DNA of 64,000 bases from assembly GCA_973895155.1 (NCBI GenBank), contig OZ316894.1:14337680-14401679 (forward strand), in the 5' to 3' direction. This DNA comes from Marsupella aquatica. Its lineage: Eukaryota; Plantae; Marchantiophyta. The notes under the pieces are model-generated. The model saw only the letters and a list, made by a program, of their open reading frames with translations, searched no databases and was not told where the DNA came from. Shown here piece by piece: positions 1-58,528 of this stretch (position 1 is its first letter; every line of letters begins with the position of its first letter). Position numbers and translations under genes: made by a program.

Positions 1-1082
1 GCGTCTCCAAAAGTGATGTCAGAGGGTCCTCTTCGAAGTGGGTACCCGGGACCAAGTGCAAATTCTCCTTATATCTTGTCGTTCTCCTCCGATGTCCTCA
101 TTGTAGAGCCATTCTTCAACGAGTCCAAGTTGTGGCTCATCTTTTGGGCGCGTGGTTCTTGTTTTCGCTTTCAAGCCCAGTGGTTCTCATACGCTTTTGG
201 GCCCAGTGGTTCTACTTCGCTTTCGGGCGCGTTCTTGTTCTTGTTCTTGTCCTCATTTCTCATTCTCGTCCTCGTTCGTGCTCTTGTCCTCGTTTGCATT
301 CTTGTCCTGGCTTCTTGTTCTTGTCCTCGTCCTCACTTTCAATGGCACCTCCATGAGGGAAGGCTAAGGAGGAGGCACTTGTCCCGAGCAACACCGACCG
401 GGAGTCCCCCGCATCAAATAGCTTACCGCCTCGGCCGAATGCCGGGAGGACGACGGTTCCAATCTCGGGGAAGGGCAAAGCGATATCAAAGACAAAGAAT
501 GCCCCACCTGCGGGCCATGGTAAAGGATCCAGTCGGCCAAATCCGAGAGGCCCGACTTCTGTTCCCGGCTAGGGATATCGCCCCTGCTTCAGTCGGTTGT
601 CCTAGAGCCGATACTATCTACACGGATCTCTCCGATACTTCTTCATCCACTGAGAGTGATCCTTCTTCGAGCGGGGACTCATCACCAAGCAGGCGAGGAT
701 TTGCGTGGTATGGATCAAGCGACTCGAATGATGACTCCGATGCGTACAAGCCAAGTTGGTGGGAAGACTGATTTCCCGTTGTCAGAGCGTTGCGTTCGAG
801 TGCTGGAGCGACTTGGAGGATCCATCGAGGTTGATAGGATCTGTTTCCCCATGTTTTTTCTAATAGGAAACGCATATCGTTCCTTCATTGTATGTCGGAT
901 TTCTAGTGTACTGTAACATTTTGTATATGAACGGCAGAGCCATTTGTTTTTACATTGGTGTCACTACTTTTGAATTCAGAATACCAAGGTTTAATTCCCG
1001 ATTCTACTCCCGTGTTTGCATTGTAATTCTGAATGTGAACCATCGATTGTCAGAAACACTCGTTGCCTGTCGATGTTTTTAG

Positions 1083-4000
1083 TAGCGTTCGGCGCTATTA
1101 TGAGAAACAAAGTGTCCTTAACACTGTCATTACATGTCTTATCTTTAAATTGTTTTTGATAGCATTGGGCACTATTAATTAAAGGAATCACAAGTCAGGC
1201 CCGTTAGGAGTTATTTTTTACTTTTATTTGAACAAATTCTGTTCGATTAATGTGCATTTTAATAGCGCCCGGCGTTGTTGTAATTTATTGGAATATTCGT
1301 TGAATGAATGGGTTCATGCATTCATGTTTGTTGCGATTGGACTCCAATTTCATGATTTATTTGAATATTTGCGCCGAGCGCTACTAAAGTTGGCTTGTTG
1401 ACACCTACACAAAATTTGAAAATTTATAGATAGTATTATCGATACTAGTGCCCGTAGCTATTGGAAGACGGCTTTTCAGATACATTTGAAGGTATGTTGT
1501 ATAATAGCGCCTGGCGCTATCTTCAACTACCGACACTGTTGTGGTTCCAACGGTCACTTTCCAACGGTAATATTATAGTAGATTGAGGTTCACGAAACCC
1601 TTTTTCCTTTTGTTTGGGATGAAAGTCCAATTGGAGAATGCCATCTGTACTTGCGACCGTTGTAATCAAATGGCTGGGTCCATTTTATTGGTGTCTTAAT
1701 ACGAGGTTGAGATCGCTCGTTGGAGATAACTTAGTCCATCTAAGCGCTCAGACCTCGGACTTACAAGTTTGTCAAGTGTGTATGTGCGTCCTTTATTGGT
1801 CCCATACATTTTGAGACTTGATCGTCACAAGAACTGCACGGCGCGTATGACAGTGTCGGATGGTCAAGTCGCTCTCCATGGCAACTTTTGGCTGGGTGAT
1901 ACGAGAATGGGGGAGACTGATGGTGGTCATTCTGAGTCCTCTCAGTCTTTGTTCGCTGGTTCTGTATACACCCGTTGTGTCACTCGATCAACTGCGTCCC
2001 TGTCAACTTCCGAAGCTGAATTTTCATAGCCCTACCCAAGGTTGAGGAGAGGGAGAATGGACCCTAAGGAGGTCTCCATGGGTGAAGTCAGTGACGTTGG
2101 CTTATCGATGGACGAGGTAATATCAAAGCATGCATTGTCGTTTGGGAAGGATTTTTGAGGATTCGATAAGGAGCCACCTCAAATTCCTCTTTGTAGATAG
2201 CTCCCCATGGAGGTTGTTTGAACCTTACAGAAAGAAAGTGCATCGATCAAGAAGTTGAAAGAATCATTCCGGGTCACAAGGTACAACTCGTGCATTGGGA
2301 TGCCTTTCTACGTTCAGCCTACGAATGCCGATGGGGTTCCTCAGATATGCACCAGCAAGATCAGAGACTCTTGGGATCCAATCTGGGTCGCAGAGAATGA
2401 GAAGTTTGAGGAAGAGTGTGATGCGGACCCAGCTTCCATATTCTAAAAGATAAAATGTTTTGTGTGTTTGACGGAAATCATCGATTGTACTCCTGGTCAA
2501 CCGTCACGAGGGAGAATCCGAACAACTTGAAGTATCATCCTCGTGTGATTTGCGTCATTTCCAATGGTGACAGAGGTTTGCCAGTTGAGCTTGAGGCGGC
2601 AATGCACACCGTGAACCAGTAAGTTATATTCGTTAATTGTTGTTATCCCTGTCATTCATTTTGGACCAAACATGCTCTGCAAAAGTGTTAATTCCCAATT
2701 TTTTCTAGCGCCCGGCGCTACTAATTCCTTTTCATTGCATCCAGGCTTGGACAAGCAGTCGTCAAGCCTTCCTGGATTCTTGACGCGGACAGAATTTGTG
2801 ATCTTGATCGCTACAAGCCACTGATCGACAGCGCGAACATGGCAAAGTTTGAGGCGATCCAAAAGAAGACAAGAAAGGGGTCTTGGTTTACACAGAAAAT
2901 GCCACAGGACGCTCTCATCTACATTGTGTGTGGACAAAATCAAGTCTTACTCAAATCAATTTAAGTCTGATATGGTTTAGCCAAAGCTCAAGGGGCGCCT
3001 TGGTCAGAAGAGGAGACCACAAAGAGGCATGAGGCAATGATGAAGGAGGCGACCAAAGATTGGTTGATCAAAGTGACGAAGATCACCCCTTTACTTCATC
3101 CGGATTTTGGAGATTATTTGGGAACGTGTGCTGAGATGTATCCCATAACTGAGAAGAACAAACGGGAGAAGAAGCTAGACACAGTTGTATGCACAATGGA
3201 TCAAGCCAGGTTGTTGACTGCTATTTCATACCTGGATCCAAAATTGAGGTGCACCCTTCTAGTAGCCCATTGCACTCCTGAGATTTGGAAACAGTTTTTC
3301 CATCCTGCAAGTGTCAACGACGAGCCTGTGAAGCAGTGGTGCCATACATGGCATACTTGGAATTTTGTGGAGGGAATTGCAACTGGAATGCTTCATACTT
3401 CCTTCAAGCAGATTTCTGACCGGATGCCGGCTGACCGTCTCACAAAGTCTGGGTGTGAGTCAATGGAGGCCATGCTTAAGATCATTCTCGATGAATTCAA
3501 AAACTTTGGGGATCTTGTCAAGGCAAAATTCTTCAACAATTTGTGGTCTTCCAAATATGCGGACAAGGAAGATTACACAGAGCGGAACCGAGATAGAGCC
3601 AAACGATATCTATATCGGTTTTACATGTGGATGGAGCTTAGATCTCCTGACACTCTATGGGCATACCCTGCTGCATTTCAGAAATGGGTGTCTATCAAAG
3701 AGGGAGACCCTCTTGCCGACCTCTATTTGATGTACCCAGCGAAGGGAAAGTTTCCACCACGTTCATTGTCGGAGTGGGAGAGACTTCACTGTCCGTGGTA
3801 CCTCAACACAGACAAATGGGATTTGCAGTTCGACAAAGCTGAGAAGGATGCCTTCATGAAGTTGCAGAAGTCCCAGATCCCTGCCAACTATGTGTCTGCA
3901 ATGAAGCAAGGTCTCCAGTCTGATGTTGATGAATCTGCATCTGAGTTACAGAAGAATTGTGAGTCTCTTGTCATGCACGTTGACCTAAGCCGTAAGCCAA

Positions 4001-6248
4001 GAGCAAAGGCAAAGAATGAGTCAGCTGCACCAAGTGAGTCCACAAGGTCCTTCAAGAAAAGTGAGTAGTCTAAGCGCTTTTTGGTTACTTGTTGGCGCTG
4101 CTTATGCAGGAGTTTCATTTGGAAATTTCTTTGATTAATAGCCCCTGGCGCTAGTCTGAAAAGTTGGACTCATGCAAGTTTCTATGCCTAACAGGAGGTT
4201 GAAAGTCCGACACTGAGGTCCCGGCTGCCAAAGGGAAGAGTGATGCAACTCCTCAGGCATCGGAGGAAAACACTGGAGCTCAAGAAACCCCTGATCAAGG
4301 GACCCCGGATGGTGCTGGCAAGTCCATTGTCCCTGTTGACGCAACTAGCACTAAGAAAAAGAAAAAGAGAGGCGCCGATGAGGACAGAGCAGCATCATCT
4401 ACTCGAGACGTTATTTCCTGTGGACTCCAGAGAGATGTCGGGAATTTTAAATGAAGGTGTTCTAGACACTGTTTTGTGGAGTCCAATTTAAATGAATTTT
4501 ACCATTCAGTATTTAACAAGGGGATGAAGCCCATGTGGGTTACTAAAGTTGAGGCCTGGGGAAAGGAATTGGTAAAGTCAGGAGACAGAGAGAAGGGAGT
4601 AATGCGTGGCGAAAAAGAGAGGGGCTTTGGTGTAGATGCTGGTTTCATCTACATTCCCACTGGATTAAAACCAACACTTCTTGATCGGATGGTTCCCAAG
4701 TGGAACCTTCAGGATTACACTATTCCCTGCTCTTTCTTCCGAGCCATGGAGCTGTTCCTGGCAGATGATGGCCTACTTGCAATTTTACACAGAGGAGACT
4801 ATGATCAGGTATCTGAAGTGATTGCGGCTTGCCAGGATTCCAAGAGTTTCTAGTGTATTTCAACCCACCATGTGGTCATGACTGCACCAATGTATAGACC
4901 CCGATCTGATACTCAGGTAACAATTCCTCTTGCACATACTAGCGCCCGATGCTACTATCAGCATTCGCTTTATCTGAACTTCACTTATCTTTCGTAAGGA
5001 GGAAGGGTTGACTAGCGCCAAACGCTAATATATATGTGTTTGTTTTCTTATACTGCCTTCATTGAGAAACTGTGTTGCAGATATTCACACTTACTCTTAA
5101 TATATTTTGCCGCATTTCGTCAAAGGGAAGGTCCCAAAAGACCCCAAGTTCCGGCCACTATCGAATGCAGAAGACCCTTCCGCCACTAACATCATTGGGT
5201 TTTCATTGGCGCGACATGACCCGACTCCTGAGCTCCAATTTGCAGGAAATTCACGCTTGCCTGTGGGTTTCATGCAAACTATTTTGGAATTGGTGACTCT
5301 TCCTGGAGATATTGTTATGGACTAGACAGTAGGTTCCGGTAGTATGTTTGTGGCTGGAGATTATTCTGGTCGCTTTATTGTTGGGCTGGAAAATCGGCCA
5401 GAGTTTGTTGATACTTCCAGTAAGGTCTTCCTCGATCTTTTACAGAACAAAGAAGTGGTTGCACCAACTCCTAAGAAGATTCCTGGAAGTAAGAAGCAAG
5501 ACAGGCTCCATGCTATTCTAAATTTTGATTCGGAAGACGAGGATGAGGGTGGCAATGCTTCTCAGCAATCTAAAGATGATGAGGTGTCGAAGAATGTGGT
5601 GGAGCTTGGATCTGGAGATGAGGACAGTGAAGAGTCAGAAGAGTAATTTTCTTTAGCTTTCTTTCTCTCATTGTATGCTTTTTTCCAAAGAACTCCTCTA
5701 CTCCCTTTTGTCTAGAAAATTCGCCCGATTTCCTAACTTTGACTAAAGAACTCCAGTTCAAATTCTTAGGTCAGAGTGGAATCTTCACAGGCATTTTCAA
5801 CTTCAAAGGAACGTCTCTAGGAACGTTGTACAGACCCCGAAGAAGCCATTTGTTCTCCCCTGTTATGCTGAAAAGGCGGCATGACGGGCAGATTCAGTCA
5901 GGACGCTTACTTGGGAGAGTAAGGGTCTTAGGCTCAAGAGAGGCTCAGATAGAAAGTTTGTGCAGAACCACTTCGTAGATGATATTTCAAAATCCAAGTA
6001 TGTGGATGACAAAGCAGAGTCCATTGATAGATCAGAAAGTAGCAATTCTGAATCGGGCTCAGAGTCGAGTGGTGGTTGTGGATCTGGTCTTTAGTTTTCC
6101 TTGTTTTATTTACCCCTTCATGGAGAACGACAACACTAAATAAGAACGCCGTGACGTGTCGGATTAGAGTAGCGTCCGACGCTATTACTGTAGCCGGTAG
6201 TTCAAAGAGGTTTTGATTTGGATGTTTTCCTTATAGCGCCTGGCGCTA
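1083..6248. repeat. Dispersed 15-bp spaced palindrome TAGCG-N5-CGCTA (consensus TAGCGCCYGGCGCTA), about 12 copies
   Basis: Copies start at 1083, 1160 (degenerate), 1263, 1369, 1446, 1505, 2706, 4139, 4940, 5013, 6170 and 6234. Confidence 0.85.
2057..5646 (+). pseudogene. Spliced, decayed gene: ParB/Sulfiredoxin-like domain + helical middle region + beta-class N4/N6 DNA methyltransferase-like fold + acidic tail
   Basis: FCVFDGNHRLYSW (DGNHR at 2470-2484); 343-aa ORF at 3037-4068; RAMELFLADDGLLAIL; RLPVGFMQTILELVTLPGDIVMD*TVGSGSMFVAGDYSGRFIVGLE (motif X-I-II-like). Candidate GT-AG introns at 2619-2744, 4061-4194 and 4917-5080. Several stops and frameshifts. Confidence 0.65.
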
Positions 6249-6454
6249 GTATAAATGTACTCAATGGCCGCTTCAGGTCCAATATATGTGACAATATTTT
6301 CTTATCATTTGGTGTCTTTTTTTGGGTGCACATTTGCTGGTATGAGTTTTGTTGTTTGTTGTTTATTGTTTGTTGTTTGCTATTTGCTGTTACGGAGAGA
6401 TCCCCCGTTTAGAGGGAAGGGGTTGCTGACTGACATCTTCCGTCTTGGAGAGCA

Positions 6455-9038
6455 TTGAGTGAGGGTAGCATAGTCTATGGATTCTGTGAAGAGCGACTGC
6501 TTTGTATTAGAAATTGCCCAGCAAAATTGTTGTGCGTATACCCTAAGCCAGGTTTGGAGAGTCACATTTCAATGTCCAGGTTGGCTGTGCATATGGGTTT
6601 CCATGACCATCTGGTTTGGAAGGGAAAATCTTGTCAGCTCCAAAGACAACGAAAGATGTTGTTTTAGGGGTCCATAGGTTGAATCCAGTCTCAAATCTAG
6701 CATGTGTGAGAAACTAGTCCATTAGCAACCTTGTCTCACTTTTGCATCCGGAATGATCAACTCAGTTGTCGAGAGAAGAACATATATAATGAAATTTGGG
6801 CTTCCATAGGGGTGGTTTTGACAGCTTCCAAGTTCCAAGCTATACTCCGGAGTATGAAGATGGATAATCCCAAAAAAGGAGAACTGGATGCCCTACGTGA
6901 AATGCAATCGCGGAATAATTTCCCTTTTGTGCAAAGGTACCTTTTTCCTGGTCAAGGGAATAAGAATGACCGAGCGCATGTGTTCAAAATGAGTACAAAT
7001 GACCTAGATCTGGTGTTGACATTTTGAGGAGCATGGAGTCTGGAGGTGTTCTAGAAGGTGCTTGGGTTAGTTTTGATGTCATGCATTGCATCACTACTGG
7101 ATGGTTGACCTTCAGTGCACATGTTTGTGACCATAATTACCGCGCACTGTGTACAATTTTTACTTGTGAGTTGAGAGTTGAAGACACCGAGTCCCTTGAA
7201 ACTGCGTGGCAATTGATGGTAGATGTGGCATCGAAGAATGGAGTGCATAATCCTATTATTGGAGGATTCATAGTTGACAATGCAGAGGTTGGTTGGATTG
7301 CTGTACAACAAGTTTTTTTGGGGGGTGTTCAAAATCCTATGAAAGAGCACAACAATGCTTTCCATTTTTCTCAGTCCCTTAGGAGACTCATGTTGGATGG
7401 GATCAAGGAGGGATGCCATGCAGAGCATTATAAGATGTGGGAGAAGTTAAGGATTGCTCCAACTTACGTTGAAGCGTATAGAATTGCTGACGACATTCAA
7501 AAATGGTGGAAAAAAGGGAATTGTCATCCTTCAAAGCTCAAATCACTTCAAGGTTGGATTTCTTGGTGGGTTGTGCGATGGAGGCAATTTTATTCGAGTG
7601 GTAATTTTATTTCCATCATTTGTGATCCATTTAAGCTAGCAAGATTGCTAGCCTAAATATCATAAATTTGACCCTAACTAGTTTGTAAGTAGTGTGCTTT
7701 GTGCTAGAGAGGTCGCTAGCCTGAATACATTGGCTAACATTGATTATCTAGCAGACACAAAGTGCAACAGAGTCTACTTTGATGCCAAACTGTGTCAGAG
7801 CTGAATCTTCTCATGCATCAATGCGTTTGTGCCAACCGAAGAAGAAAATTGGTTTGATGGAAGCCTGTGAAGTTGATCAAAATCAAGCAGCTTGACAAAT
7901 TACCGCATTCACTGTGTATATGGAAGGATGTCATTTTGGTAATGGTCCTACAATATTTGAGCTGACCTATTGCAATGCAAATACAATGGGATCGTTGGAT
8001 GCCTACGAGAAGGCATCCAATCTACTATTTGAATCCTCTGGAAAATATGAGCTCTTTACATGGGGATCTTCGAACAATGTCAGGGAAACGGAAGGGTAAT
8101 GCTTCTGCTTCTATTCATGATAATGATTCTCATTGACATGATAAGATATTGCGCATAGTGGCGTCTCCACCAAGCTTAAAAAGAAGGAATCTGTACTCTG
8201 AATTCAGTAACTTCAACGATGGTTTTGAGCTTGGTGGACCGTCGTGCATTCCTGACAATGAAAACAGTCCCACCCGCTAGACAGATGCTCTCCCTCGCAA
8301 AGTTATCAATATCTCAGATGATGGTGAAGAACAAAGCCTTGGAGCAGATGTAGAGGAAACACCGATTGCAAATGATGTTGGAGAAATACCATCTCCTCAA
8401 AATAAATGGGATTGGATTCGGGCTGCCCCCTGAAGGATCCCTTTCATTGAAAAGGCTGATGTTTTGTATGGGACCTGGCATTTGAGGCAAAGTGGAAAAG
8501 GGAGTGGCTTGTATGCAATGGACTAGTGGATCGAAGTGTCTTTGGTAGAGAAGAATGTCGTAATCTTATCAAGGAAACTGGATTTAAGGCTTTCCAGACT
8601 TGAGTTGTTGGTGTTGCCATTCACGGATTGAGGTTGTCCTCTCCACATTGTCAGCTTTTGTACTTCTGTCCGAGTAATATGTGCCATAAGACAGGTGGTA
8701 GAAGGACTCTTGCCCAGCTCCTGCAACCACTTGAGGCACTGCAAGTCCAACAAGGAACTAAGCTGACCCCTACAGAGATTGATTTTCTCCTTTGAAATGG
8801 ATTTGAAATAAGAGGATTATCATACTCTGATGCAACACCAATCAGGGCATTCTCTCCTGCAAGTTGTCTTGACCTCCAAATTGATGTGAACGCCTTCCCC
8901 GAAAGGGTTGACGTTGCTTTCCCAAATAGTCGATTGAAGACTCAGAATGGGAAAGGCGTTTGCCAACATTTCCAAAACACCCCTGAGCTTCTTAAACGCA
9001 TTCAATCTGCAATTGACAAACAAATGAGAGTCATTGGA
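6455..9038 (+). pseudogene. MULE (Mutator-like) transposase, N-terminal and core part (WRKY/GCM1-like Zn finger + MULE DDE domain)
   Basis: C..CPAKL...RLAVHMGFHDH (6455-6667); WVSFDVMH...ELRVEDTESL...GFIVDNAEVGWIAVQQVF...AFHFSQSL (7024-7656). Interrupted at 9038 by the LINE. Confidence 0.75.
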
Positions 9039-9840
9039 GGACTGAGGAGACCTAGAAGCGCACTAGCGGATTGGCTAGTACTTGCTAGGGTGGATTTTTG
9101 TTTCGGTTGATTCTCCATAGGGAGTCTGAACGCTGCTATGGATGGCTTGAATAAAAACTGGTGAACAGTGTTACAGATTGAAACTGTTTTGAGAAAGTTT
9201 GACTCGGTTAGTGCTTTGCGAGAGGGAGATTGAGGCTATGCTCGTTGCGCCTAGGGTTTGTTGATCTAGTGAACCTGGGACGATAGCAGGGATGGCATTG
9301 GCCTCACTGGAGCAAAGGCACTTAAACACGTTGACTTAGGGCGAGGCAATCAGGATTACTTACTTAGGATTAATGGTTGATGCTCCTCGGTGTAATCTGC
9401 TCCTGCTGTCAGTTGCGGCTGTTGAGAGTGAACGGGTTGGATTTGGGTGAGGCAACCTGGATTACTTACTTTGGATTAGTGGCTGATTCTCCTCGGGGTT
9501 TCTGCTCCTATTGTAGTAGCGGTGGTGAAGTGGGAACCGTGTGTTCTGGTGCGCTCCCCTTGGATTGGATTTGACTATTCCGGCGGAATAGCCTTATTGA
9601 ATTTTGGTGAAGTATCACACAGAGTTTTGTGGTCTGCTAAATCCCGGTTTTTTTATCGGCATGATTAGAAGGGTTGGAGAAGGGCTGGGGGACTACTAAT
9701 GGCAATTACACTTTAGGAGATTTGATCTTTGAAGAGTAAACTTGGGTGCTAATTGCCAAGTGAGTGATACTTTTATTTCTGCCTTCACATTGGTGTGCTT
9801 TGCGGGTAGTCAGAAATTGTGTACTAGGCTGATCGGAACT

Positions 9841-12071
9841 ATGAATCATCGTTTTGAGGGGGGTCGTGGAGCGGGTAGATTCAGAGATAGGGGACAACAA
9901 AGTGGTGTTGATGGAACGCTGTCAGAGGGGCATTACCGGCAGGTCACTGGACGTGTTGTGGACTCCCGTGGTTTCTCAAAGGATGGTGGGGGGGGCAGAC
10001 ACAGTTACTTACGACAGGACACACGTTCTTACGAGGCTCCTCTAGATTGTGGCCCTGCTGACCTTGCGGAGCCTCTGAGGAGGATCTCTCTTGAGACTAC
10101 TAATGTACCTTTGGAAAGGCTGGATCCCTTGGAGGTTGAATCTGCGCAATGGGACAAGAGACAGGAAGCTATTAAGAGGAATTTAGAGGCAGCTGAAGAA
10201 TATGGTCAAGTGGGTACATACCGTCTTGAGGGGAACTAGGACGCCCCTATTGCTCATCATAGACCGCTGCCAATGGGGAATTGTTGGCCAGCTGCTATGG
10301 GGACTGGCAATGAGGTGACGATTGCCAGCCCTGTGGGGACCAAAATTGCTTCTCCTTTGGTGGTGGATCAGAATCAAAGGCACGGAGGGGATATAGTGGG
10401 GATCGAGGAACCGGGGGCTGCTGACGAGGAAGTAATCCCGGAGGAGTGCATTGATATTCTGAAGAAAATTGCTAAGGGCTCGACAGATACCTGGCCGTCT
10501 AAACTTCATACTACTTTGGTCTGGCCTATGGAAGAAGCGGCTCTTTCTATCCACAAGCTATTCCATTGCTCTATGTTATGCTACTTCACTGATCGGGCGC
10601 CCCTTCTTCCCGTGTTCAAGGACTGGGTTGCTGCTAAAATGGTTGAAGGGATGGGATGGTCGGTGACCCAAACTAAATATGTGGGTAAAAATTTCTTCTT
10701 GATTGCATTCAAACATCCGCAGCATAGGGAGGTTGCTCTTGCATAGGCACCTTGGTTCTTGGCAAATTTATGTTCACCTTTCCTTGGGATCCGTCTTTCA
10801 ATGTCAAAAAGGAGTCATATGTGAAGCTCCCTGTTTGGATTGAAACAATTCCCTTTCACTCTTTACTACTGGAGGGCTGTCGTAAAAGGATTGCAACATC
10901 TTTTGGGAGAGTGTTGTACTACATTCAGGGTGATGAACGGAGCTCTTATCCACATGACAGGGCTTGTATCCTTTGGGACAACCGAAGGGAGGTCCCCTGC
11001 AGCGTGAAGGTGATGATTCAGGAGGATATTGCTATCTGGCAGCCAGTGATTTTCAAGAATATTCCTTATCACTACTACAGGTGCAACAAGAAAGGGCACT
11101 TTGCTAGAGATTGCTTGACTATTGAGGCTGTGGAGAAGGCTCATGCCCGGAAGGAGCTGGAGAATGTGAACGCTTTCCCCTCGGTGGGGGTGGTGGTGGG
11201 AGTGACGGCTCCTATCGCTCCTCTGAAAGATGGTAGTGCTGCCACGGCGGAGGAGAATGTGAGGATTAACGAGGGTAATGGAGCTCTGGTTGGTTCGGGC
11301 AGCATTGATAAGAGGGTTGAAGTTTTGGCGTCCGTGCCTCAGGTTTCAGGGGCCTACAGTTTGGTTGGGGCTTTGAAGGGCGTTACTATTGAATTGGTTG
11401 TCGGGATGAACCCCCTCCGGAATGAGTGCGGAGGGGAGGTCTCCCCGGCTCTTCCAACTTTGACACATCCTTTGGAGGCTGGAGCACTATCAGCGTTGAA
11501 CAGAGGGAAGTTGTGTGGGACTGGGACAAATCTTGGATCCACTGCTGGTGTATTCGCAGAGGGACAAATGGTTAGGAGTGACGGAACTCCTCTGTTCCCT
11601 GCTGCTGTGTTGGACTCTCAAGGACCGAGAAGGGAAGTGGAAGATGAGGGGCAGGGGATTTTGATGCGAGAGTTGATGAATAAGGAAGTCATTGAGGGTT
11701 CGGTTGCTGCAGTGGTGGCCCCTATTGCGGCTGTGGAAGCATCAATTGAGGAGGCTGAGCTTTCACTTGGGAATGCAACCGAGGGATCGGGTGTGGATGA
11801 GAGGATGTCCTACCATGGAGAATCAGACCCCGGGCTATTAGAGTACGAGAAGTATATCTCTAAAAGTCAAACTAAAAAGGATAGAACAAGGAAATTGGAA
11901 AGACAGACACCACCAACTAAGAGGAAGAACAAAGGGAAGAAGGAACAAAAGAAACAACGATCCTTACATTTTGAACCATCGCAATTGCAGGGTGATGGTG
12001 GAGTGATGATGATTGATCAGGCTAGCGGAGGAGCGGACAAAGAGGACTGGGCGGTGCCACCTAGGGACTAG
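9841..12071 (+). pseudogene. LINE ORF1 (DUF4283-like region + degenerate zinc knuckle)
   Basis: YVGKNFFLIAF, PWDPSF..KLPVWIE, YRCNKKGHFARDC. Contains stops and frameshifts. Confidence 0.8.
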
Positions 12072-12229
12072 GGAGGAGGCAAAGAGATGGTGGAGACTGG
12101 AGCAGACCTGGGGACTATCTCTTACACTCGGGCTCTGGAGGGTGTACCTGTGGAGACCGGGTCCCCTTCGATTGAGAGTTGTTTCCCTATGATGTGACGA
12201 GCTTGCAAGGACTGAGGGGGGTGGGAATT

Positions 12230-15200
12230 ATGGATCCTGCATGGTATTTTGCCACTTGGAATGTGTGTGGGCTTTGCAACCCCAATTGGAAGCACATTGT
12301 TAAGGACTGGGTGCACTCTCTACGACACCCACTTACGGCTTTAGCACTACAAGAGGTCAAGGTGGACCAATTCAGGCTGGACATTGCACTGCGTGCGATC
12401 TTTCCTGGATATCAATGCTTCTCATCTGCACCGGATGAAGGTCATGGTGGTTCAGCCATTTTGTTGCATCCATCGCTGAAGGTGATTGCTTCTGGACAAG
12501 TTGATTTGGGAAGGGCGGTATGGATACAAGTGGAGCATGAGAAGGGGAATTTTGGGCTGATCAGTATATACGCTCCTAACAGTTCTTGGGAGAGAGTGCT
12601 ACTCTGGAATGAGATAAAAGAGGTGCTACCTTTGGATCAATGGATATTATGTGGGGATTTTAATATGACTGAAAGCAGGGATGACTCTACTGGCACTGGT
12701 CCGCTCTTGCGAGGTTGAGAAACAGAATTTTGGTGCTTTCTAAAAACTAGATTTAACTTGGAGGATGCGATGAATATTATCGGGGGGGTGAATGGATCAA
12801 GATTTACGTGGAGGAAAGTTTGGTTTGGAAGGGTTATTCAATCAAGGCTGGACAAATTTTATTCTAGTGAGCAGGGTTGATGGATTTTGGAAAGTTGATA
12901 CAGCTGGTGCATGAAGAGGGCACTTCACTCTCTGACCATGACCCAGTTCTCATTTAATTTAAATTAGGCAGTGATGAGGGGACCGGATCGAGGAGGAAGT
13001 CATCGTACTTCAAGGCCAATCCTGCCTTCCTACGATCGGAGGAGAACTAGGGGAAATTGAAATCGGCATGGGAAGAAGGGAAATGGAGGTGACGGACCCT
13101 CACCTCCATTTTGTGCAGGCTAAAAATAGACTCAGAGAGTGCCTAAAAGGTATACAAGGCACCCCGATGGCTCAGCAGATGGCGACGGAGGCGATTAGGG
13201 AGAAACTTTGACTATTGAAGGTTACATTGATGGGGGAGTACTCGGATGGGACTCTGAGCAAGTACTTAACGGTGGAGAATCAGTTGCGCACAGTGGAACA
13301 TGATGAGGCTCAGCTGGGGCACAAGCTTGCTAGAATTAAGTGGTTGGGTGAGGGTGATGAGCCTTCTTGCTTTACTTTGCTACTGTGAAAGCTAAACGCT
13401 GTCGAGAAGCTATGCCCTTGCTGCTACTTGAAGATGGAACCACGATTACCAATGAGGCGGAAGTGTTGAAGGAAGTGGAAAAGCAATGCATAAAGTTAAT
13501 TGCACTTGAAATTCGGACTGAAGAGGGAAGTAGAGAGGTCAGAGAAGCACGTAATAAACTGTTGAGGAATACCGGGAGGGCCCTGAATGACAAGGAGTTG
13601 CATGCACTCGAGGATCTTCCGCTTCTCAAGGAGGTTGAAGGAGTATTATGGATGATGCCTGCGGACAAAGCGCCGAGACCAGATGGGCTCACTGTGGAGG
13701 TCTTTCATAGATGCTGGGCTTTTATTAAGAATGACATGATGGAGATGATTCAAGCATTTTGGGTCAATGGGGAGATGGCTAACAATATCAAAGATGGGAT
13801 TATTAAGTTCATCCCTAAGAAGCCTGATAAGAGGAGACTGAAAGACTGGCGGCCACTCACGATGCTTAATACAGTGTATAAGATTATTGCTTAGAGGTTT
13901 CTTGCACTTTGACTCAAAGTCCTGTTACCCAAGCTCATCAGCGTGCAACAGACTAGTTTTATCCCCGGTAGACATATCCTGGAGAATATTTCCATTGCAT
14001 GGTTGACGAATGACTGGTTGAAACAAAACAAGTGCGAGGCCCTATTTTTAAAATTACATTTTGAAAAAGCTTTTGATAGAGTTTATCATTCTCATATTTG
14101 GGAGTCTATGCACCTTCTCGGGTTGGGGGATCATTTTATCATGTTGGTTAAGGCATTGTTAAGCAATTCCTACTCTTGTATCCATGTGAAGGGACTTCTG
14201 GCGAGATTCCCCTACTTTGTGGTGTGTGGCAGGGATGCCCTCTCTCGCCGCTACTTTTTGCCATCTCTACACAACCACTTATGGACTTTCTTGATGCGGA
14301 GCTCAAAGAGGGCAGGCTCAGTGGAATTCAGATCACTGTTGGGTTGACTATTTGTTACAGACTTTTTGCAGATCATTTGGGGATGGTGGTACCAGCCACT
14401 GAAGTGGCTTTTGTTCAAACAAGGGTTGCACTAGCATGCTATTAGCTAGCTTAGGGGGCTCTGTTGAACCTACGCAAGTCGGTGGTTATACCTCTGGAGC
14501 TGGCAGTGATTCCGGGTTGGCTTTCACAATCGGGTTGTACCATTAGCAGATCAGGGGAGGTGCAACGCTATCTTGGGGCACCACTTGGCCTGAGCCTCCG
14601 GACTTCCCAACTGCATGACTTTTGTTTGGATAAAATTGCTCAGCGACTATCATTTTGGACTTCTAGACTGCTGTCCTTTACTGGTAGAGTGCTGCTAGTG
14701 AAACATGTATTGCAGGCTATTCCTATTTACCATATGATGTTCCTCAAGTCCTCTACGGAACTGGCAAAAAAGATGATTGCCCTCTACCAAAACTTTTTAT
14801 GGGGTTACAATCCGGCTGGAGGCAGTAAGGTTCCTCTGGTGGCTTGGGTTACTTTGACTCGACCCAAGGTGATGGGTGGGTTGGGATTCAAAAAAAATTG
14901 GATTCATTTGGACGCCCTTTTGAGTCGCTGGTTTACGAAGGCACTGGATGACCCCAGCTCTGAATGGGCTCGCCTACTTGGGGCTAATCTGATGTTGGCT
15001 AAGTGGCACAATCAAAAGGGTATAAGGAAGAATGGGTATTCGGTTAAGGATAGAATTCTGTTAAGCTCACCATCAAATTTTGGTAAGCTTAGATATACAG
15101 GTAATCTCTGGCAGGCTTGGGTGCCTCTTCGATCGGGAATATCTGATCTTCTATCCACTGAATGGAACTATTCCTGGGCACTGGGGAATGATGGACCTGT

Positions 15201-16177
15201 TGAACTGCCTGGAAGGATTTCAATCACTATCTGTTGGCGTTTTGCATGCTCTTGTAGAGATTTGTGGGAGAATTGGACTCAGAAGAGTGGATGCACTGTG
15301 GTCGGATCGTGGAGGATGTTGGATTTTGGTGGCTGCCAGGATTGATAAAGTTAGAGGTATTGATCGAGAGAGGCAGGAGATGTGCCATAGGCTGATGGAC
15401 ACAATTTGCTCTGCTAGAAGGTGTATGTCTGGTGCTGTATCCTCTCCTACATCCTGGCACTGGGGAGATTGCAACGATAAGATCAATGTTTTCAGACTTG
15501 AAAACAAAAGAATTTACCAGATCATGTTGCGACCTAAGGGATCGGAGACCTGTAGACTGAACAGAATTTGGGGGGGCTCTCGGACTGAGAATGAATGGAG
15601 CAAGCTTTGGCTCAATCTGTCGACACTTGACATTGCAACTAGGGCTAAGACCTTTCTATGGCGGATCATTGCGCAAGGGCTTTTCTCGGGTGTGAGAGCT
15701 CTTAAAATTGGTAAAGGGACTGGGAGGTGTGGGATGTGTACTGGCTCATGGGAAATGATTCCTCATATAGTTTTCTTTGAGTGTAGGCCCCGGTGTAGGC
15801 ATGCATGTCGGTGCTGGAGATTAGTACAGGATTGTATGGCAAGTTGCTTCACATGGCCCTGTTTGGACATGCTTCCAATGCTGGACTCTACTGTGGGTAG
15901 GGAGAGCATGCATACGGTGAAGGCCTTTGTAATGTACCAAGTTCTATGGACTATTTGGCTTGGCACGAATGAGCAGATTTTTTATCAGAGAGATAGACGT
16001 AGTTTTGACCTCACACTTGTTCTCTCCAAGGTTGTGGACTCGCTGCATGCAGCTTGTAGGGTCACTCCTGGTCGGAAACTCTCCAGGCTGCTTTGTGCCA
16101 AGGGAACTATAGAGATACTTAGGATCAGGTGGATTCCTCAGATTGGCAACCAGTTTTTTTCGCTGCCCGGTCTGTAG
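12230..16177 (+). pseudogene. LINE ORF2 (APE endonuclease, reverse transcriptase, zf-RVT)
   Basis: TWNVCGL, LQEVK, SIYAPN, GDFN, SDHDPV; KAPRPDG, WRPLTMLN, FEKAFD, QGCPLSP, LFADH, RYLGAPL, GGLG; KTFLWR..C..C...H. Confidence 0.92.
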
Positions 16178-16489
16178 GAGGTTTGGCGGCTGTCACTTTC
16201 ACGTTCCCGTTGTTACTGCTAGGGGGGATGTTTTGGGCTGCTGGTGTGCTAGGGTATGTTTGCCCCGGTGGCAATCGTGTCTGTGGACTTTGCCCTTGTA
16301 GGGTCGTTGATTTGGGCTGGGGGCTCATCTGTGGGTTGTGACTACTCACTTTCCCGCTTGGGTTCTTTGGCCCTTTGTTGTATTGCCTTTTTGGGCTTTT
16401 TATGTATTTCGATGGCCTTTTGGGTCCCCCCCTCCGCGGGGTTCACGCAAAAAAAATAAAATATATATATATAAATGAGAGTCATTGGA

Positions 16490-16640
16490 AGTGAGAAGAT
16501 TTGCACAGGAAATGGATGGGGATGACAATATTTCATCGCTACTCACAAGAGTGATTCTAGAATTGCACACAACTACCGGGTTCAAGTGTGCTGCTTCCCT
16601 TGTTGCTCTTGTGATGACTTCTACAAGAGGCACACACGAG
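16490..16640 (+). pseudogene. MULE transposase fragment, first half of the SWIM zinc finger
   Basis: Removing the LINE restores the frame: KQMRVIG|SEKICTGNGWG*QYFIATHKSDSRIAHNYRVQVCCFPCCSCDDFYKRHTR. Confidence 0.75.
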
Positions 16641-18244
16641 TGTCAGACCCTCACTTATGAGCTAATAAGCCTTATTGTACTAAAAGCTTGCACTTGATAG
16701 CTCTTTATCACCAGGAACTACGGGAGGGACGCTCCATAAGAAGGAACTACCTCTATTTCCATTAAGCCTTTGCTTCTCCTTGAGACTGTGCAGATGTATT
16801 TGGTTTCCGTCACCAGATATGGGTATTCTTTGGTTTCCACCGCTGGAAATGTCCCCCTACCCGGAAAGACAACTAATCTAGGTCTCCCTTTCCCAAAGAG
16901 AAGACTTCTGGACTCACAACAATCATATGAGCAACATGCTAGACCACAAGGGCCTCAAGATTTCAGATGAGTGCACATCAACAATTTCTTTCCCAGAAAC
17001 GCGCTGAAATTTCATAAGAATTTCAAAGGAAGTACATGGGTAGGTTGTCACTACCTACTTGCTATACTTTAGCTTCTTCAACTCCTACTACTTAACACTA
17101 TGGTCCTTTCAAGCCTCAAGGCATACACTTGAGTTCTAGTACCCCTAGAACATCTACCTTAGTTCCCCTAAGGTCTCTTAGTGCTACTCCTTGATTCTCC
17201 ATACTTGGACCCACACAAAGTAACTCACACCAACTTAAGTACTCCTTGCTTGGCTCCAACTCATCACAAAGTCCAAAACCACCCCAAAGGCCAGCAAGTG
17301 ACTCATCACTAAAAAAGACCAGCCCACCTTTCAAGGGGGTCAAAGATCCTTACTTATCCTCCTAACTATCTCACTAACTCACTTGTTTGTCTTACCTAAC
17401 TAATGAGCTAGTTGGTGGCCTTTTGAAAGCCTAAATCAACTCCTTGATTTTAGCCCTTCATTCAGGTCCACCTCACCTCCTGACTTGGCTATCCTATCCC
17501 TCCAAATCAGGGACTAAGTCAGCCTCCAAAGTACAGTCATCCCTATTTACCAAATAGCTCTAAAAATAGTAGAGGGATCAACTTCCAATGGCCCTCCAAG
17601 TTCCTCCAAAGTCTCCATGTAACTCAGGTCCTTAGGTACCCTCCATGTTGGCTTTAAGGACTCCACTCCTTACCCTCCTTATTCCTGGACTCCAGAACCA
17701 GCCTAGGTCCCCTTGACATGAAAGAGCCCTTCTCCAGGCCTCACCCATCCGATTAGGGCCTTGCGAATGACCCAAGCATGGTACCTCCTTACCGTACTGG
17801 TTAGTGGCTTGGTAATCTGGTTGTCCTCTCTGAAATGCTTGAGGTACACCTTGGTGAAAGCCCTCAGATTTGAACTTCTGCCCCTCTTGTCCACCTTTGA
17901 GCAAGCTAGGTATTGGAACCCCGTGAGACTACAAACGTAAAGGCCCAGTACTCATGTGAAATATAAGCCCTGGTCTTGACAGTAAGTGCATGGGTGAACG
18001 GAGAGAAAGAACTCATGGAAATAGGAGAATGAATGCTTCCCATCTATGGTAGAGTCAACTGCCTGATTCAGTTTGGAGCAAGGAGAGAACTAAGCTAGGA
18101 CTTAGAGAACTGAACTTGTTTGAAGGGATCGTGGATTATTTGAAGGAAGTCTGGCTGGTGCTTCTGTTCATACCAGCCCTCCATTCTCACAAAAAATATC
18201 TCCCTTCCATGTGTTCTTCTCTCGATTGTCGGTTGACCTTGGTA

Positions 18245-19210: not shown

Positions 19211-22200
19211 TGTTGTGGGATTAATGAGACAAAGAGTTGGTTCCATCTTTACTCTTGGTAGAATATGTACATGTGGCTACGGCCTAAGTAGTTAGGGTAG
19301 TTACATAGGTAGTTATCCCAAAGATAGACTTAACTCAAGTATGAGTTACAACACTCCCCCTTTGTAACATTGGGGTTTAAATGTTACAATCAAGAGTCTA
19401 CTTTGGGTATATTCAGTGGTATACAATAGGTTTTGTTTATGTCTAGCCTATTTTATAAATGGTGTAGCCATCTCAAGTCTACTATAAATGAATGTCAAGC
19501 TTCTCATAATAGATGTCTTATAATTCATGTTGCATGGTAAAGTGTAAGTGGGGGATGTAACCTCATTAAAACCTCCCCTACTTTCTTTGTGGGAGGAAAG
19601 AGTATTACCATCCCCATGGGTGTAACATATTTGGGTTTAAGCATATAGTGTATGTGTAATTTCTACAAAGTCTCTTAAGGTGCTTGTCAGCACTATAGGC
19701 TTGTTGAAGATCTTCCTTGGTTGATTGTTTCTCGTGTCTCCTTCCAATCTGGAAATGGAGACTCCTTGATGGTCACCGATTACATGCCATGACAAAATAA
19801 AGTATTAGTACAAAATGAAGATGATATGGTGTAATCCATGGCCTTGGAATTGGATTGGGTGTCCAACCCTAGATTTGGTGTGGGCATAACTTATTTGCAC
19901 CACATCACGTACCATATCCACAACATAGGGTTATCATATTGGGGTATGGCGCACCATCTCTTATGGTGCCTTACCATGCCATGTCTCACCTTATGGTACC
20001 TTATGACCTGGTACTGTACCTCATATTATCATATGGTACTTTAATATCCAGTATACCTCATCAAGTATTGGTACGTGATTGTGTTAACACCATGTTCAAT
20101 CATTTATAAAAATTCCTTAGATTTCATGATTTGCCATATGCATGGAATAGAGTTCCATTTTTAGGTATTCATTGGTGCGAATCGAAAGGCACTTGTGCAA
20201 TAGGCACATCCCATGGGTTACATTGCTTGATGTCAAGTCTTACTTGAGGTCTCCCCCTCAATTTGTCATTTACTTCCATGTGCAGTAGGCACTCATTGGC
20301 TTCCATGTGTAGTAGGCACGGAGCTTAACTTTTAAGTGCAGTAGGCACGTTGGGAAAAACAATTCTCCCCCTGAATTTGTGAATGGCAATTCTTATATGG
20401 TAATATTCCCAATAGATATCTTTCATTTTAATGCCATTTTGTCCCCGTTCTTAGTATGTGTGTTTCCCTGGTTCAGTGCACATTGTTCTTTGTATACGCA
20501 AATCTATTTGATGGGTTTTGCAATTAAGGAGGGTTTGCACTTAGCGGTATGTTCTCGACGTTTTCTCAAAGTTTTGAAGTTCTTTGTTGCGAGATTTGTT
20601 CGTCAGCTGCAGGCGTTCCCTTCGTACTCTTTAAACGTCAAGTATGCCTTCTTTCTTTGTGGTCCTCTGCTCTATCTATCGTCCTTCACTCCATCTGCGC
20701 CTGGTCATGGTTGTCGACAGTATAATTCTCCGGTTTGCGCTCTCTCTTATCTTCTGTTATTGGTCCCAATCCTTCCTTCGACAAGGGGAAATCCTCTGAA
20801 TCTTCTGCTTCACTCGCTTATTGTGGCATGGTTCCTTCCTTCATTCCTTCCCTCTGGTCACTTCTTGCTGCATTCCTTCATATTCATTTCCGAATTTCAA
20901 CACCTCCACATCACATCACTATTTCGCTCTATGGTGGTTTGTTATCCTTATTGCCGAAATCGATACGGCACTTGTATCGTTCTGGATGCGGTATCGTACT
21001 CGAATGACTCGGGCCTCCTTCTCCCCTGTCCTTATCATTGTGTGCCGAATTGTATCTGGGTCCAATCCTTCTTCTCTGTAGTCAGTTCTGTGTGTCTCTG
21101 AATCAGGTGGACTTCAAGGTAGTCGGTGGCCCGGTCGGTAAGTCTTGCTCTGTGTGAGGGCCCTTGTTCAAGATTGGGTCGTCTGGTCAATTTCAAAAGG
21201 AAAATTCTCTTTCATCAAAGCGCCTTTGTCGTTCTTCCTTCTTCAAAATTCATTGGAATGCACTTTGAATCTCAGCCAGTGCGTATGATTTTGTCATTCC
21301 TTTAGGTCAGATCAAGCAGGGCGTTCACTTGCGTTCGTGAAAACAATCCATTCGGTTCATAATCCTCAGAACGCGGGAAAAACTTTGAAGGTTCAGTTCA
21401 CCATCGCCAGGCCCACGTTGTGCACATGGATGCACATGAAAGGAATGCCGATGTGGAGATAGGGAATTAGTAGAATCTGATGAAAACTCTTCTGCTTCTC
21501 TAGCTAGCCGCTTCCGCCTTTAGAGATAACAATCCCTTTTTCCGCGATTGACATGACCTCACCTCGCATCACTATAGGACTCTCTCATCCGCAAATTTTG
21601 TGCACGCTATGACGCAATTCTTTATCCATCACATCACAATCCTTAATTCCGCCATCTCTCTCTCGTTCATTCAGCTTTTTCCAGCGATACATCGCCAAAT
21701 TCGTTCATACCTCTCTCTGCCCCTCTAACAAAGCTCCGTCATGGCTCGGCCTCTTCAGGTCTTAGAGTGAGTCAGTCATGGCCTAAAAAAAAATTTCAGC
21801 CAGTCTCAGGTTGTCCTTATCATCTTCGAACGATGTTGCGCTTCTTTCATTGATTCGTCAATGTCCTTGTTAAAAATTTTATTTCTGAAAGTGCTCACAG
21901 TTGTCGAATGGTTGCCTTCGGTCCTCTTTCCCGGATCTGCCTTACTCGGTCTTTCTTAATCCTGCTTCGATCCTTATGAGATTATCAATGTCTTCTTCTT
22001 TTCGTTGTTCAATTCGCCCTTCTTCTTAAAAAAAATTCATGGCCTTGCTCCGCTCAGCCTCGTAGAGTCGTGCTGATAACGTGTTGTGGGATTAATGAGA
22101 CAAAGAGTTGGTTCCATCTTTACTCTTGGTAGAATATGTACATGTGGCTACGGCCTAAGTAGTTAGGGTAGTTACATAGGTAGTTATCCCAAAGGTAGAC

Positions 22201-38844: not shown

Positions 38845-40891
38845 TGTGACGCCGCCGGTACGGCGAGTAATGAGCAATTCAGTCTAAACCGTGCCTAGCA
38901 CGCGCGTCAGGGGTATCTTAGGCCACTATGATTAGCATAACGACAGTATTTAGGTAGCCATTATGAGTAGGAAATCATTAGTCAATAAGGGGAATTCATG
39001 TCTGGGCTGGCGGCGCGTCGCCATTCGCACGCCCGGGTTACGAGCGTGGAGGGGCCCCTCCCTCGGGTCCGTATAACAAACTTTAGGAGGCGTCCACTGA
39101 CACGCGGTGACTCAGACCGGCGGAGTGGCCGGTACACTACAAGCGTGAACGGTTCAGCCTATAGGCAACGAGGAGATGTCGAGGGATCGGCAAGCCCTCA
39201 AGGTATAAAAAGGGAGCCGACCCTTTGGAGTGCACCAGTCCATCAGTCCACGCGCCAGCTTTGACCCCAGCTCTCTCATTCGCTCTAAGTCGCCACTACT
39301 ATCTCCTCTGGATGTCGCACACGATCCTCTCCAGCTCGGCCATTCGATTTTGGACGCAGTTCCTATCTACCGGAAGGCACTTGGCCGACTCATTGAAACA
39401 CGCCAACCCGCACCGATACGAAATCGAACGTGAGTACGAGAGAGCCATCCGCCTAGCAGGACGACACCACTACATCCTTAACTTTGACTACCCGTCTCAG
39501 AGCAAGCTTTACCGACTAGCAGAGGTATCTAGGTACTTCTTCAACGGAGACAAATATATCGGTTTCCGGGAAGCATTGCTTCGGCTTCCGAACGAGGTCT
39601 TCAATATCCCGGGTACGATTGACTTGCAACGACATCACTTCAACCACATCCTTGCTCAAGTTCGGGCTATCATCAACAGCGAGTCCAGCACTACCCGTTC
39701 GACAAGGTCGTCCGCACTTGCTTTGGAGAACTTCTACCAGCACCTGCAGAGCTTCATGGGAACTAGACCTGCAACCACCGGCGCCAGCCCAATGGACCCC
39801 ATACCCGTACCCATACCAACGCAGACTCAGGCTCAGGCTCAGCTTCAGGCTCAGCTTCAGGCTCAGCTTCAGTCTCAGCCTCAGCCTAGCCAACCAGGTC
39901 CAGCTCCTCAAGGCAGACAATGACAGACTTCGTAAGCAGCGGGATGGCCGCTCCCACTCGGGCGGCTGTGGCAAGCGTACCAGGCATTAGCGGCGGAGTA
40001 GGAATAGAATAGGGTTAGGAGTAGCTAGGTCAGGCTATTGGGACAGGCACCTGCCTTAGTTACAGCAGTATTGCCATGTTGTCCAGCCTGCGTAGATTAG
40101 AATCTTCTAATAAGACACAGCCGTTTTTTGGCCTGACAGTCAGATTAGTTAGGACCTAAGTCAGCGAATCTTCGGGCGGTAGGACACTTTGTTCCCCGGC
40201 CCTTAGTATTTAGTGCACCCCTCGGTTGAGGCAGGGGGGGTTTTAGTCTCAGAGTTGGACATCCGTGGTATGTGCGGGGAGTCCCGACCTCTGGGAGTGA
40301 AAGAGTACCAAGGGGAGGGGGTAGGACTAAGCTCGCCGGGCGAGTGCGGAGCCGGGCTCTGTTGTAGTATACTCTCTCGGCCTTGAACCTGTTCATTCCG
40401 GAGCTATCGGGTCAACCAAGTGTACGCACATGTCCCCTATGTAGTAAAATCCTTTCCCATTATTTCCTTCGTGTAAATCGAGATTGTATGCTTGTGCGCG
40501 TGTATGTGTGTGTGAATCTCGTGTATAGGTGACAACGCCGGGCCGAACGCACTACCCGAGTCATGCACAGGGTGCAGCTTGCGGGGATGTGGTTGCGAGC
40601 ACGGGTTGAGGACCTGTATCATAGAATCCGGATCGAAGGCGGACAACACGAAGGCCTAGAAGTCCTTAAGCCGGGGTCGATCCTGTTATCGACTAAGGTA
40701 CGTTCCGGCGGTGGAACACAAACCATACCTAGGAGATGCCCATATCTAACAGTAGGCGCGTGTATGTGTGTGTGAATCTCGTGAATTAGGTGCATTACGC
40801 GCTTCCCTCCCTGCCCGAACCCTCATATTTACGAAGGAGATGCCCATTTAAAGCTGAAGCCCGAGTTTAGGCCAAGGCTGATGACGTGACA
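38845..40891 (+). repeat. 5' LTR (2047 bp, carrying a ~2-kb internal deletion)
   Basis: Matches 46996-48022 and then 50011-51004, with ACC microhomology at the join near 39893. Confidence 0.93.
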
Positions 40892-40904
40892 TAGCCTTTG
40901 TTTT

Positions 40905-40922
40905 TGGCGCTAGATGGAGGGG
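40905..40922 (+). promoter_or_regulatory. PBS TGGCGCTAGATGGAGGGG, probably complementary to the tRNA-Asn 3' end
   Basis: Starts with TGG, 13 nt after the LTR end. One mismatch to the plant tRNA-Asn(GUU) 3' end as I recall it. Confidence 0.65.
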
Positions 40923-41015
40923 GCACTCTACATATCGTAGAGGGGAGACATGTGCGTATGCACCTGGGCAAAATACACCAGGCCCTAGTACTAACCATCG
41001 CATTTACACGAGTAA

Positions 41016-46940: not shown

Positions 46941-46995
46941 CGACGACGCCGAGAGTGATGTTTGCGAGGACGCTTCACAATTAAGCAGGGAGCTA

Positions 46996-58000: not shown

Positions 58001-58528
58001 GTGACCATCAAGGAGTCTCCATTTCCCGATTGGAAGGAGACACGAGAAACAATCAACCAAGGAAGATCTTCAACAAGCCTATAGTGCACATACACTATAT
58101 GCTTAAACCCAATTATGTTACACCCATGGGGATGGTAATACTCTTTCCTCCCACAAAGAAAGTAGGGGAGGTTTTAATGAGGTTACATCCTCCACTTACA
58201 CTTTACCATGCAACATGAATTATAAGACATCCATTAGGAGAAGCTTTACATTCATAGTAGACTTGAGATGGCTGCACCATTTATAAAATAGGCTAGACAT
58301 AAACAATACCTATTGTATACCACTGAGTATACCCAAAGTAGACTCTTGATTGTAACATTTAAACCCCAATGTTACAAAGGGGGAGTGTTGTAACTCATAC
58401 TTGAGTTAAGTCTACCTTTGGGATAACTACCTATGTAACTACCCTAACTACTTAGGCCGTAGCCACATGTACATATCCTACCAAGAGTAAAGATGGAACC
58501 AACTCTTTGTCTCATTTCTCCCACAACA
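55039..58528 (+). mobile_element. Non-autonomous Bianca-type LTR element, copy 2
   Basis: 143-bp LTRs at 55039-55181 and 58386-58528; TSD CATAG; PBS CGTTATCAGCAC; PPT AAAGGGGGAG. The 3' ~1 kb is nearly identical to copy 1. Confidence 0.95.

Follow-up and report, generated by a model that had tools for sequence, protein, structure and literature searches.

What might a plant transposon do with a gene that joins a ParB/Srx-like domain to a bacterial-type DNA methyltransferase (MTase) fold? Such a gene lies at 2057-5646 of a 64,000-nucleotide stretch of contig OZ316894.1 from the liverwort Marsupella aquatica (hereafter, the window), where an earlier reading of the letters alone (the sequence-only reading) had described it as an intron-containing, transposon-associated ParB/Srx-like and N4/N6 MTase-like gene. 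From the sequence comparisons below, we tentatively favor the view that it is a conserved accessory gene of a likely Mutator-like element (MULE), whose protein may recognize the element's own TAGCGCCNGGCGCTA palindromes and would probably serve as a non-catalytic self-binding or anti-silencing factor.

The locus is a broken copy of a multi-copy liverwort gene

Positions 2057-5646 hold a decayed gene of four exons and three introns, one broken copy from a multi-copy repeat. The gene model, read from the sequence, comprises ~1057 codons (Table 1). All three GT-AG introns proposed in the sequence-only reading were located, and homologs back two of them: Riccia sorocarpa gene models span the intron 1 junction in frame, joining the N-terminal domain to the exon-2 domain, and the two homologs that reach the N-terminal half of the MTase, from Riccia and Calypogeia, stop matching at the position of intron 3, while intron 2 was placed from splice signals and reading frame. 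The motifs noted earlier were also recovered. VFDGNHRL, reported near the N-terminus in a reading frame broken by frameshifts, lies at ~2464-2487, and the C-terminal order comprises FIYIPTG at 4644-4664, LFLADDGLL in exon 3, and PVGFMQTILELVTLPGDIVMD*TVGSGS...SGRFIVGLE in exon 4. The window copy is dead, with nine premature in-frame stops in this reading and frameshifts near 2433, 2924/2975 and 5129. Prokaryotic contamination was ruled out by the spliceosomal introns, the liverwort homologs and the surrounding plant retroelements.

Contigs from six of the eight sequencing runs listed contain part of the stretch. In one of them (run X1), 1593 contigs fall on 1-10200 with 80-100% identity (in classes from <90% to >99%), and the cover falls at ~9.04-9.18 kb; read depth in this run is not equivalent to copy number. 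None of the contigs aligned showed a spliced junction, which carries no evidence on expression. This multi-copy cover rules out a single-copy host gene, the alternative that the sequence-only reading had set against its own. Most of the covering depth carries insertions relative to the window copy at 2433, 2924, 2975 and 5129; these additional bases eliminate the frameshifts together with the two stops in exon 2. In addition, other copies differ at 2199, 4851 and 5324, each of these positions falling in one of the window copy's stops (2198, 4851 and 5323). Most of the lesions compared are thus absent from other copies, indicating that the decay is private to the window copy and that the family, as read from these contigs, has an open frame at the lesions compared. 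The 21 coding differences listed against other copies include 11 non-synonymous and 8 synonymous changes.

A complete HMMER search using the exon-2 open reading frame (ORF) returned 84 related proteins at E<=0.001, which are 24-59% identical; among the 19 that were looked up, seven are from Riccia sorocarpa and two from Calypogeia fissa. They represent many diverged subfamilies, including at least seven distinct Riccia proteins, with conserved motifs and introns. The homologs are often partial models or single-exon calls, and word-based searches for longer homologs, one of them limited to 1412-4030 amino acids, returned no full-length intact one. A tblastn search of phages found nothing for the Riccia homolog.

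A 15-bp palindrome marks the non-coding DNA of the gene

The palindrome TAGCGCCNGGCGCTA, absent from the sequence-only reading and newly noticed here, is a candidate binding site. With up to two mismatches allowed, this 15-bp sequence has 10 matches in the window versus 0.06 expected, a count reached by none of 100 shuffles. All 10 sites lie within 1083-6248, with four upstream of the gene, one each in introns 1 and 2, two in intron 3 and two downstream, and none occurs in 6249-64000, which includes the transposase-like gene described below. No site overlaps coding sequence (0/10; p ~2e-4), and the four inside the gene are all intronic (p ~2e-4). At 4 of 10 mismatch positions (1275, 1277, 4950 and 5022; sites 1263, 4940 and 5013 and nearby), other copies carry the consensus base among the differences listed, indicating that TAGCGCCNGGCGCTA is a maintained family feature. 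A dimeric binder encoded by the element would need such a two-fold symmetric site, kept in each non-coding segment. The observed/expected CpG ratio is 0.40-0.49 in exons 2-3 and the transposase-like gene versus 0.99 upstream, ~0.9 in introns 1 and 3, and 0.51 in intron 2; this contrast was not used as evidence, given the CpGs contributed by the motifs and the shortness of the introns.

The methyltransferase-like half has a degenerate motif IV

The MTase fold claimed for the C-terminal half was borne out by the exon-4 piece, which passes the PF01555 cut-off (E 8.5e-7; 29.6 bits, cut-off 26.7) over profile positions 164-219 of 221. Motifs X-I-II, which bind S-adenosylmethionine (SAM), lie on this C-terminal side (E 2.9e-13 with a profile of phage enzymes), and the best sequence matches of exon 4 are DpnA, CcrM, M.PvuII, M.MboII and phage methylases. 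PF01555-type matching is confined to the SAM-binding half, and the ESM Atlas gave no usable match for the exon-3 ORF.

The sequence-only reading had also seen no canonical (D/N/S)PP(Y/F) and considered the enzyme possibly inactive. Consistent with this, the motif IV position reads YIPT (window), DLPT (Riccia) or SVGT (Calypogeia), and all three family members reaching it lack the canonical motif: the aromatic residue is replaced by Thr in each, and Y, D or S occupies the first position. By comparison, 94 of 100 phage references carry DIPY, DPPY or DLPY. The window codons (4650-4661) have no majority variant in other copies among the differences listed. In addition, the lysine of HPxQKP, present in six of six phage enzymes, is L in the window protein. 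The register of motif IV was obtained with hhalign, in which a three-sequence profile (IYIPT/MDLPT/VSVGT) aligned GVDAGFIYIPTG on VDMVLCDPPYG and thereby placed motif IV before motif I, the permuted order. All three reference sets gave this register (E 0.016-0.017 for two of them), and none of 100 column shuffles reached the score; the support is modest, because the segment was cut by eye and single-sequence tests were non-significant. As read, the window protein does not carry the motif of an active beta-class methylase, (D/N/S)-P/I/L-P-(Y/F/W). The degenerate motif IV suggests that the family is probably a pseudo-methylase, and judged from these residues a pseudo-enzyme seems likelier than an active one.

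The N-terminal domain is probably ParB/Srx-like

We consider a ParB/Srx fold for the N-terminal domain quite probable. When residues 95-275 of the Riccia homolog P0084 were compared with the ESM Atlas, the feature matches were DUF3723 clusters (0.96 and 0.95) and a cnidarian cluster (0.95), and a ParB_N cluster was a further neighbor (0.92; 32% of cluster members). Eight of the nine structure rows were ParB-labelled clusters, with template modelling scores of 0.48-0.57 obtained from a low-confidence model and lying under the naming bar. A G-x-x-R box with a downstream E...N marks the ParB/Srx fold. The window copy, P0084 and P0051 have a DGNHR box (DGNQQ in P0042), and E-x-A-M-H-x-x-N lies downstream of it. 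The ParB-like piece alone passes no curated model, with no Pfam match, E 0.18 for TIGR03187 (DGQHR) and E 0.35 for a PHROG ParB-like family, and family profiles compared with the PDB gave either nothing or no significant match. An hhalign comparison with 80 phage N-terminal domains placed the first half in a ParB-like register, still without significance after post hoc removal of an insert. Taken together, the ParB/Srx part of the sequence-only reading is likely from the Atlas neighbors and motifs, and is not proven, the Pfam, PDB and hhalign comparisons being non-significant.

The neighborhood of fungal DUF3723, cnidarian and ParB_N clusters hints that the DUF3723 proteins of fungal Starship transposons have a ParB-like N-terminal domain. 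PF12520 (DUF3723) gave no Pfam match in any family member scanned, and a literature search found no paper holding both DUF3723 and ParB.

A helical insert of 440 amino acids separates the ParB-like and MTase domains. AlphaFold2 (AF2) models this middle domain well (~residues 278-440) as helical. Foldseek gave no match to its fold at E<=0.001, and the best VIA-align hit (Z 6.4; rmsd 4.2 over 60 residues), like CENP-B (Z 5.3), was within background.

The gene adjoins a transposase-like gene

The association with a transposon is supported, since the stretch is multi-copy and a transposase-like gene adjoins the accessory gene (Table 1). This neighbor is 60-62% identical over the core to three proteins, P0008-P0010 (660-693 amino acids). 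By eye, it has the MULE motifs FDxMH, DNA.AGW and FHFxQS and a SWIM-like tail, but no Pfam, NCBIfam or PDB match was found, nor did tblastn against phages return anything. A DDE core with a CxxH-like motif, a SWIM finger (PF10551, PF04434) and a 9-11 bp target duplication mark the MULE/Mutator superfamily. The proposed linkage to MULE transposases therefore stands for a transposase-like neighbor, with the superfamily assigned by eye and not by Pfam. The element is likely a multi-copy liverwort DNA transposon of MULE type; its left end is outside the window, and the cover is high at position 1.

Table 1 Features of the accessory gene, its palindromes and the neighboring transposase-like gene in the window
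Feature	Coordinates	Strand	Remarks
Upstream TAGCGCCNGGCGCTA cluster	1083..1519	.	Four palindromes, at 1083, 1263, 1369 and 1505
Exon 1	2057..2618	+	ParB/Srx-like N-terminal domain, IPLCR...ESF...DGNHRL...RVICV...EAAMH; three stops and a frameshift in the window copy
Intron 1	2619..2744	+	GTAAGT/TCCAG; perfect palindrome at 2706-2720
Exon 2	2745..4060	+	All-helical middle domain; HHP, W..W..W, R.KR..RF, MYP and WE..NCPWY conserved
Intron 2	4061..4194	+	GTGAGT/AACAG; palindrome at 4139-4153; placed by splice signals and frame logic alone
Exon 3	4195..4916	+	Low-complexity linker with KKKKKR run, then N-terminal half of MTase fold; YIPT (motif IV position) at 4650-4661
Intron 3	4917..5080	+	GTAACA/TGCAG; palindromes at 4940-4954 and 5013-5027
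Exon 4	5081..5646	+	SAM-binding half of beta-class amino-MTase (PF01555), then acidic tail
TAGCGCCNGGCGCTA pair	6170..6248	.	Two palindromes between accessory and transposase-like genes
Decayed MULE-like DDE transposase gene	6455..9038	+	FDVMH...FIVDNAE...FHFSQS; similarity begins only at homolog residue ~254-277; superfamily by eye
Long interspersed nuclear element (LINE) within transposase gene	9039..16472	+	17-bp duplication, 9022-9038 / 16473-16489
Transposase gene continued past LINE	16490..16710	+	SWIM-like Cys/His pattern, by eye

P0008-P0010 have a Cys/His-rich N-terminal region without a Pfam, NCBIfam or PDB match, and possibly represent an unmodelled MULE-related clade. The LINE is near full-length, with a 101-bp direct repeat in its 5' region. 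Within the same high-cover element, 341-770 is a short, low-complexity ORF-like stretch (MAPP...KPSWWED), in which other copies are one base shorter, at 567; this stretch may represent a further accessory gene.

Relation to known systems

The Ectocarpus transposon Sola1-1_Ec32 carries a 1104-amino-acid gene for a ParB-like plus N4/N6 MTase protein, described as a possible new class that binds and modifies its own element (PMC12477816). The liverwort gene has the same domain order, a similar size (1104 versus ~1057 amino acids) and, as its likely carrier, a large DDE DNA transposon, but differs in its liverwort host, same-strand MULE-like transposase, degenerate motif IV and intron palindromes. 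The likeness is one of architecture at the level of description.

In red algae, the Plavaka protein PAG3 joins ParB to a 2-oxoglutarate (2OG) oxygenase and has adjacent inverted repeats (bioRxiv 2025.02.11.637652), and accessory-gene homologs are described on Chondrus Mutator elements (bioRxiv 10.1101/2025.02.11.637652). Like PAG2 and PAG3, the liverwort gene couples a ParB-like domain to a DNA-modification fold with inverted repeats nearby. The partner in PAG3 is instead the 2OG oxygenase, the Plavaka N6-adenine (N6A) methylase being in a separate gene with SET, and the Plavaka repeats are tandem arrays, whereas the liverwort sites are dispersed single palindromes. According to the Bostrychia paper (bioRxiv 2025.02.11.637652), self-modification of this kind has been proven for VANDAL alone. 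VANC21 binds a motif in the introns and intergenic regions of VANDAL21 (PMC5735166). Both systems have an accessory gene on a Mutator-like element, an assignment made by eye for the liverwort one, with short motifs specific to the element in intronic, intergenic or terminal non-coding DNA. The VANC motifs are 9-bp same-orientation tandem arrays of proven function, whereas the 15-bp palindrome here is a predicted site, and the likeness noted is one of layout.

Phage and bacterial beta-class amino-MTases, including ParB_N-MTase fusions (PF01555, PF02195), likewise have motif IV before motif I, but they differ from the liverwort gene, which has introns, the helical insert and no (D/N/S)PP(Y/F). 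ParB-linked MTases, inactive MTase domains in DIRS1 and unusual strand-4 motifs are on record (PMC4738411). Bacterially derived writers of N4-methylcytosine (4mC) are known from two eukaryotic groups, Marchantia and bdelloids: MpDN4MT1a/b and N4CMT, respectively, share the beta-class bacterial-type fold in a eukaryote but, unlike the gene studied here, belong to the host, carry an SPPY-type motif and are proven to be active, and MpDN4MT1 has no extra domains. DUF3723 (PF12520), conserved fungal Starship cargo of unknown function, is the nearest language-model neighbor of the N-terminal domain and is also transposon-borne, although Starships use a tyrosine recombinase.

By architecture the gene fits the ParB-MTase class of transposon accessory genes, its ParB part being likely, and from its residues it is a land-plant, probably catalytically dead variant of that class. 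Algal transposons with this architecture have been described before, which makes it less novel than the sequence-only reading implied. Within an incomplete coverage of the literature, no title or abstract described a liverwort or land-plant example. Iyer et al. 2011 is reportedly cited for green-algal examples, which may lower the novelty further.

How the accessory protein might act

In bacterial ParB, the N-terminal domain binds cytidine triphosphate (CTP) and the following helical domain reads parS. If the liverwort protein recognizes its own palindromes, a dimer would bind the two-fold symmetric TAGCGCCNGGCGCTA site, with the ParB-like domain as a nucleotide-gated dimerization switch and the helical middle domain reading the palindrome. 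The MTase fold could keep contacts to SAM or DNA without methyl transfer, and the likely outcome would be local protection from host silencing by 5-methylcytosine (5mC), in cis and in trans, as provided by VANC for VANDAL; active self-methylation would be the less likely branch. This agrees with the sequence-only reading, which had proposed a possible role in self-marking or anti-silencing. Several observations weigh against such self-recognition by a non-catalytic protein. The linkage of gene, palindrome and transposase is known from this window alone, and a JGI metagenome scan gave a single related locus (1053 bp coding) among 159 candidates, without context. The stops at 2156, 2219, 4200 and 4452 lie outside the comparison with other copies. 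As for the domains, the hhalign query for motif IV was cut by eye, and the N-terminal half of the MTase alone was non-significant against a profile of 100 phage enzymes (147-350 of 1000 shuffles reached the score). The hhalign comparison with the phage N-terminal domains was likewise not significant (18/150 and 9/200 shuffles), and the AF2 model of the N-terminal domain has a mean confidence (pLDDT) of 32. Finally, the palindrome could be a transposase site.

This last point leads to a possible but less probable reading, in which the transposase or a host factor binds the palindromes and the accessory protein aids transposition or inheritance otherwise, perhaps by serving as a clamp or scaffold of ParB type, similar to the Starship DUF3723 cargo. 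The DUF3723 neighbors of the N-terminal domain and the Cys/His-rich N-terminal region of the transposase homologs are consistent with it, as is a report that a Mutator transposase is itself a sequence-specific activator (10.64898/2026.08.24.746577). The sites nevertheless cluster around and inside the accessory gene and not in the transposase gene, red-algal ParB accessory genes likewise have adjacent inverted repeats, and the element ends are not visible in the window. We regard as rather unlikely a parS/ParB-derived system in which a CTP-gated ParB clamp would load at TAGCGCCNGGCGCTA and spread over the element, so that the methylase fold shields cytosines or marks 4mC against silencing. If true, it would be a second independent land-plant anti-silencing system and a branch of a pan-eukaryotic family including Starship DUF3723 and the cnidarian proteins.

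Catalysis could also have survived a non-canonical motif IV, with an active amino-MTase writing 4mC or N6-methyladenine (6mA) on its own element, e.g. at the CCNGG or GCGC core within the palindrome, so that host 5mC would be blocked or mimicked. Conservation is good in the SAM-binding half (D-x-T-x-G-S-G, and the acidic residue in IVGLE), DIPY and DLPY are tolerated in phage enzymes, Riccia retains the Asp, and the 4mC writers and unusual strand-4 motifs mentioned above offer precedents. We nonetheless judge this improbable in view of the Thr at the aromatic position in all three members, the variable first residue, the lost HPxQKP lysine and the precedent of inactive transposon MTase domains in DIRS1 (PMC4738411). 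Least probable is a captured host or relic gene copied as passive cargo with a Pack-MULE-like element and without function for it. While the dead window copy, the many partial or single-exon homologs and the substitutions listed, which by themselves imply little constraint, are compatible with passive cargo, the diverged subfamilies keep motifs and introns, other copies are open at the lesions compared, the introns carry a maintained motif, and the same architecture recurs on the unrelated Sola element. We therefore retain, tentatively, the self-binding accessory protein.

Other features of the window

The remainder of the window consists of nested retroelements (58 of 91 listed ORFs scanned). 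The sequence-only reading had placed a C5 MTase at 38.5-51.7 kb, giving two unrelated MTase classes on transposable elements in one window. The enzyme was confirmed (PF00145, E 2.3e-9) as part of a different, Ty3/Gypsy element, and a link to the accessory gene was rejected. It lies at 37.2-52.6 kb on the minus strand (LDLFGG, GWPCQG), between the protease and reverse transcriptase of this Ty3/Gypsy, in which the integrase is followed by a plant homeodomain (PHD) finger. It resembles the DNMT-bearing retrotransposons reported from dinoflagellates and charophytes (PMC5890265). The element is split by a second Gypsy (~38845-51004), which has two pairs of 1-kb direct repeats (38845-39863/46996-48014 and 39893-40891/50011-51004, ~95% identical) as well as an additional ORF region without annotation at 47.5-50.1 kb. 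Separately, 19211-21075 and 56788-58529 are inverted repeat copies ~37 kb apart, 97-99% alike over several hundred bases.

Implications

The element offers a precise candidate site together with a liverwort family, and because the relative Marchantia is transformable, the proposal is directly testable. The Atlas link to DUF3723 provides a lead on an uncharacterized Starship gene. The eroded catalytic motif suggests that this class of transposon accessory proteins may act by binding DNA rather than by methylating it.

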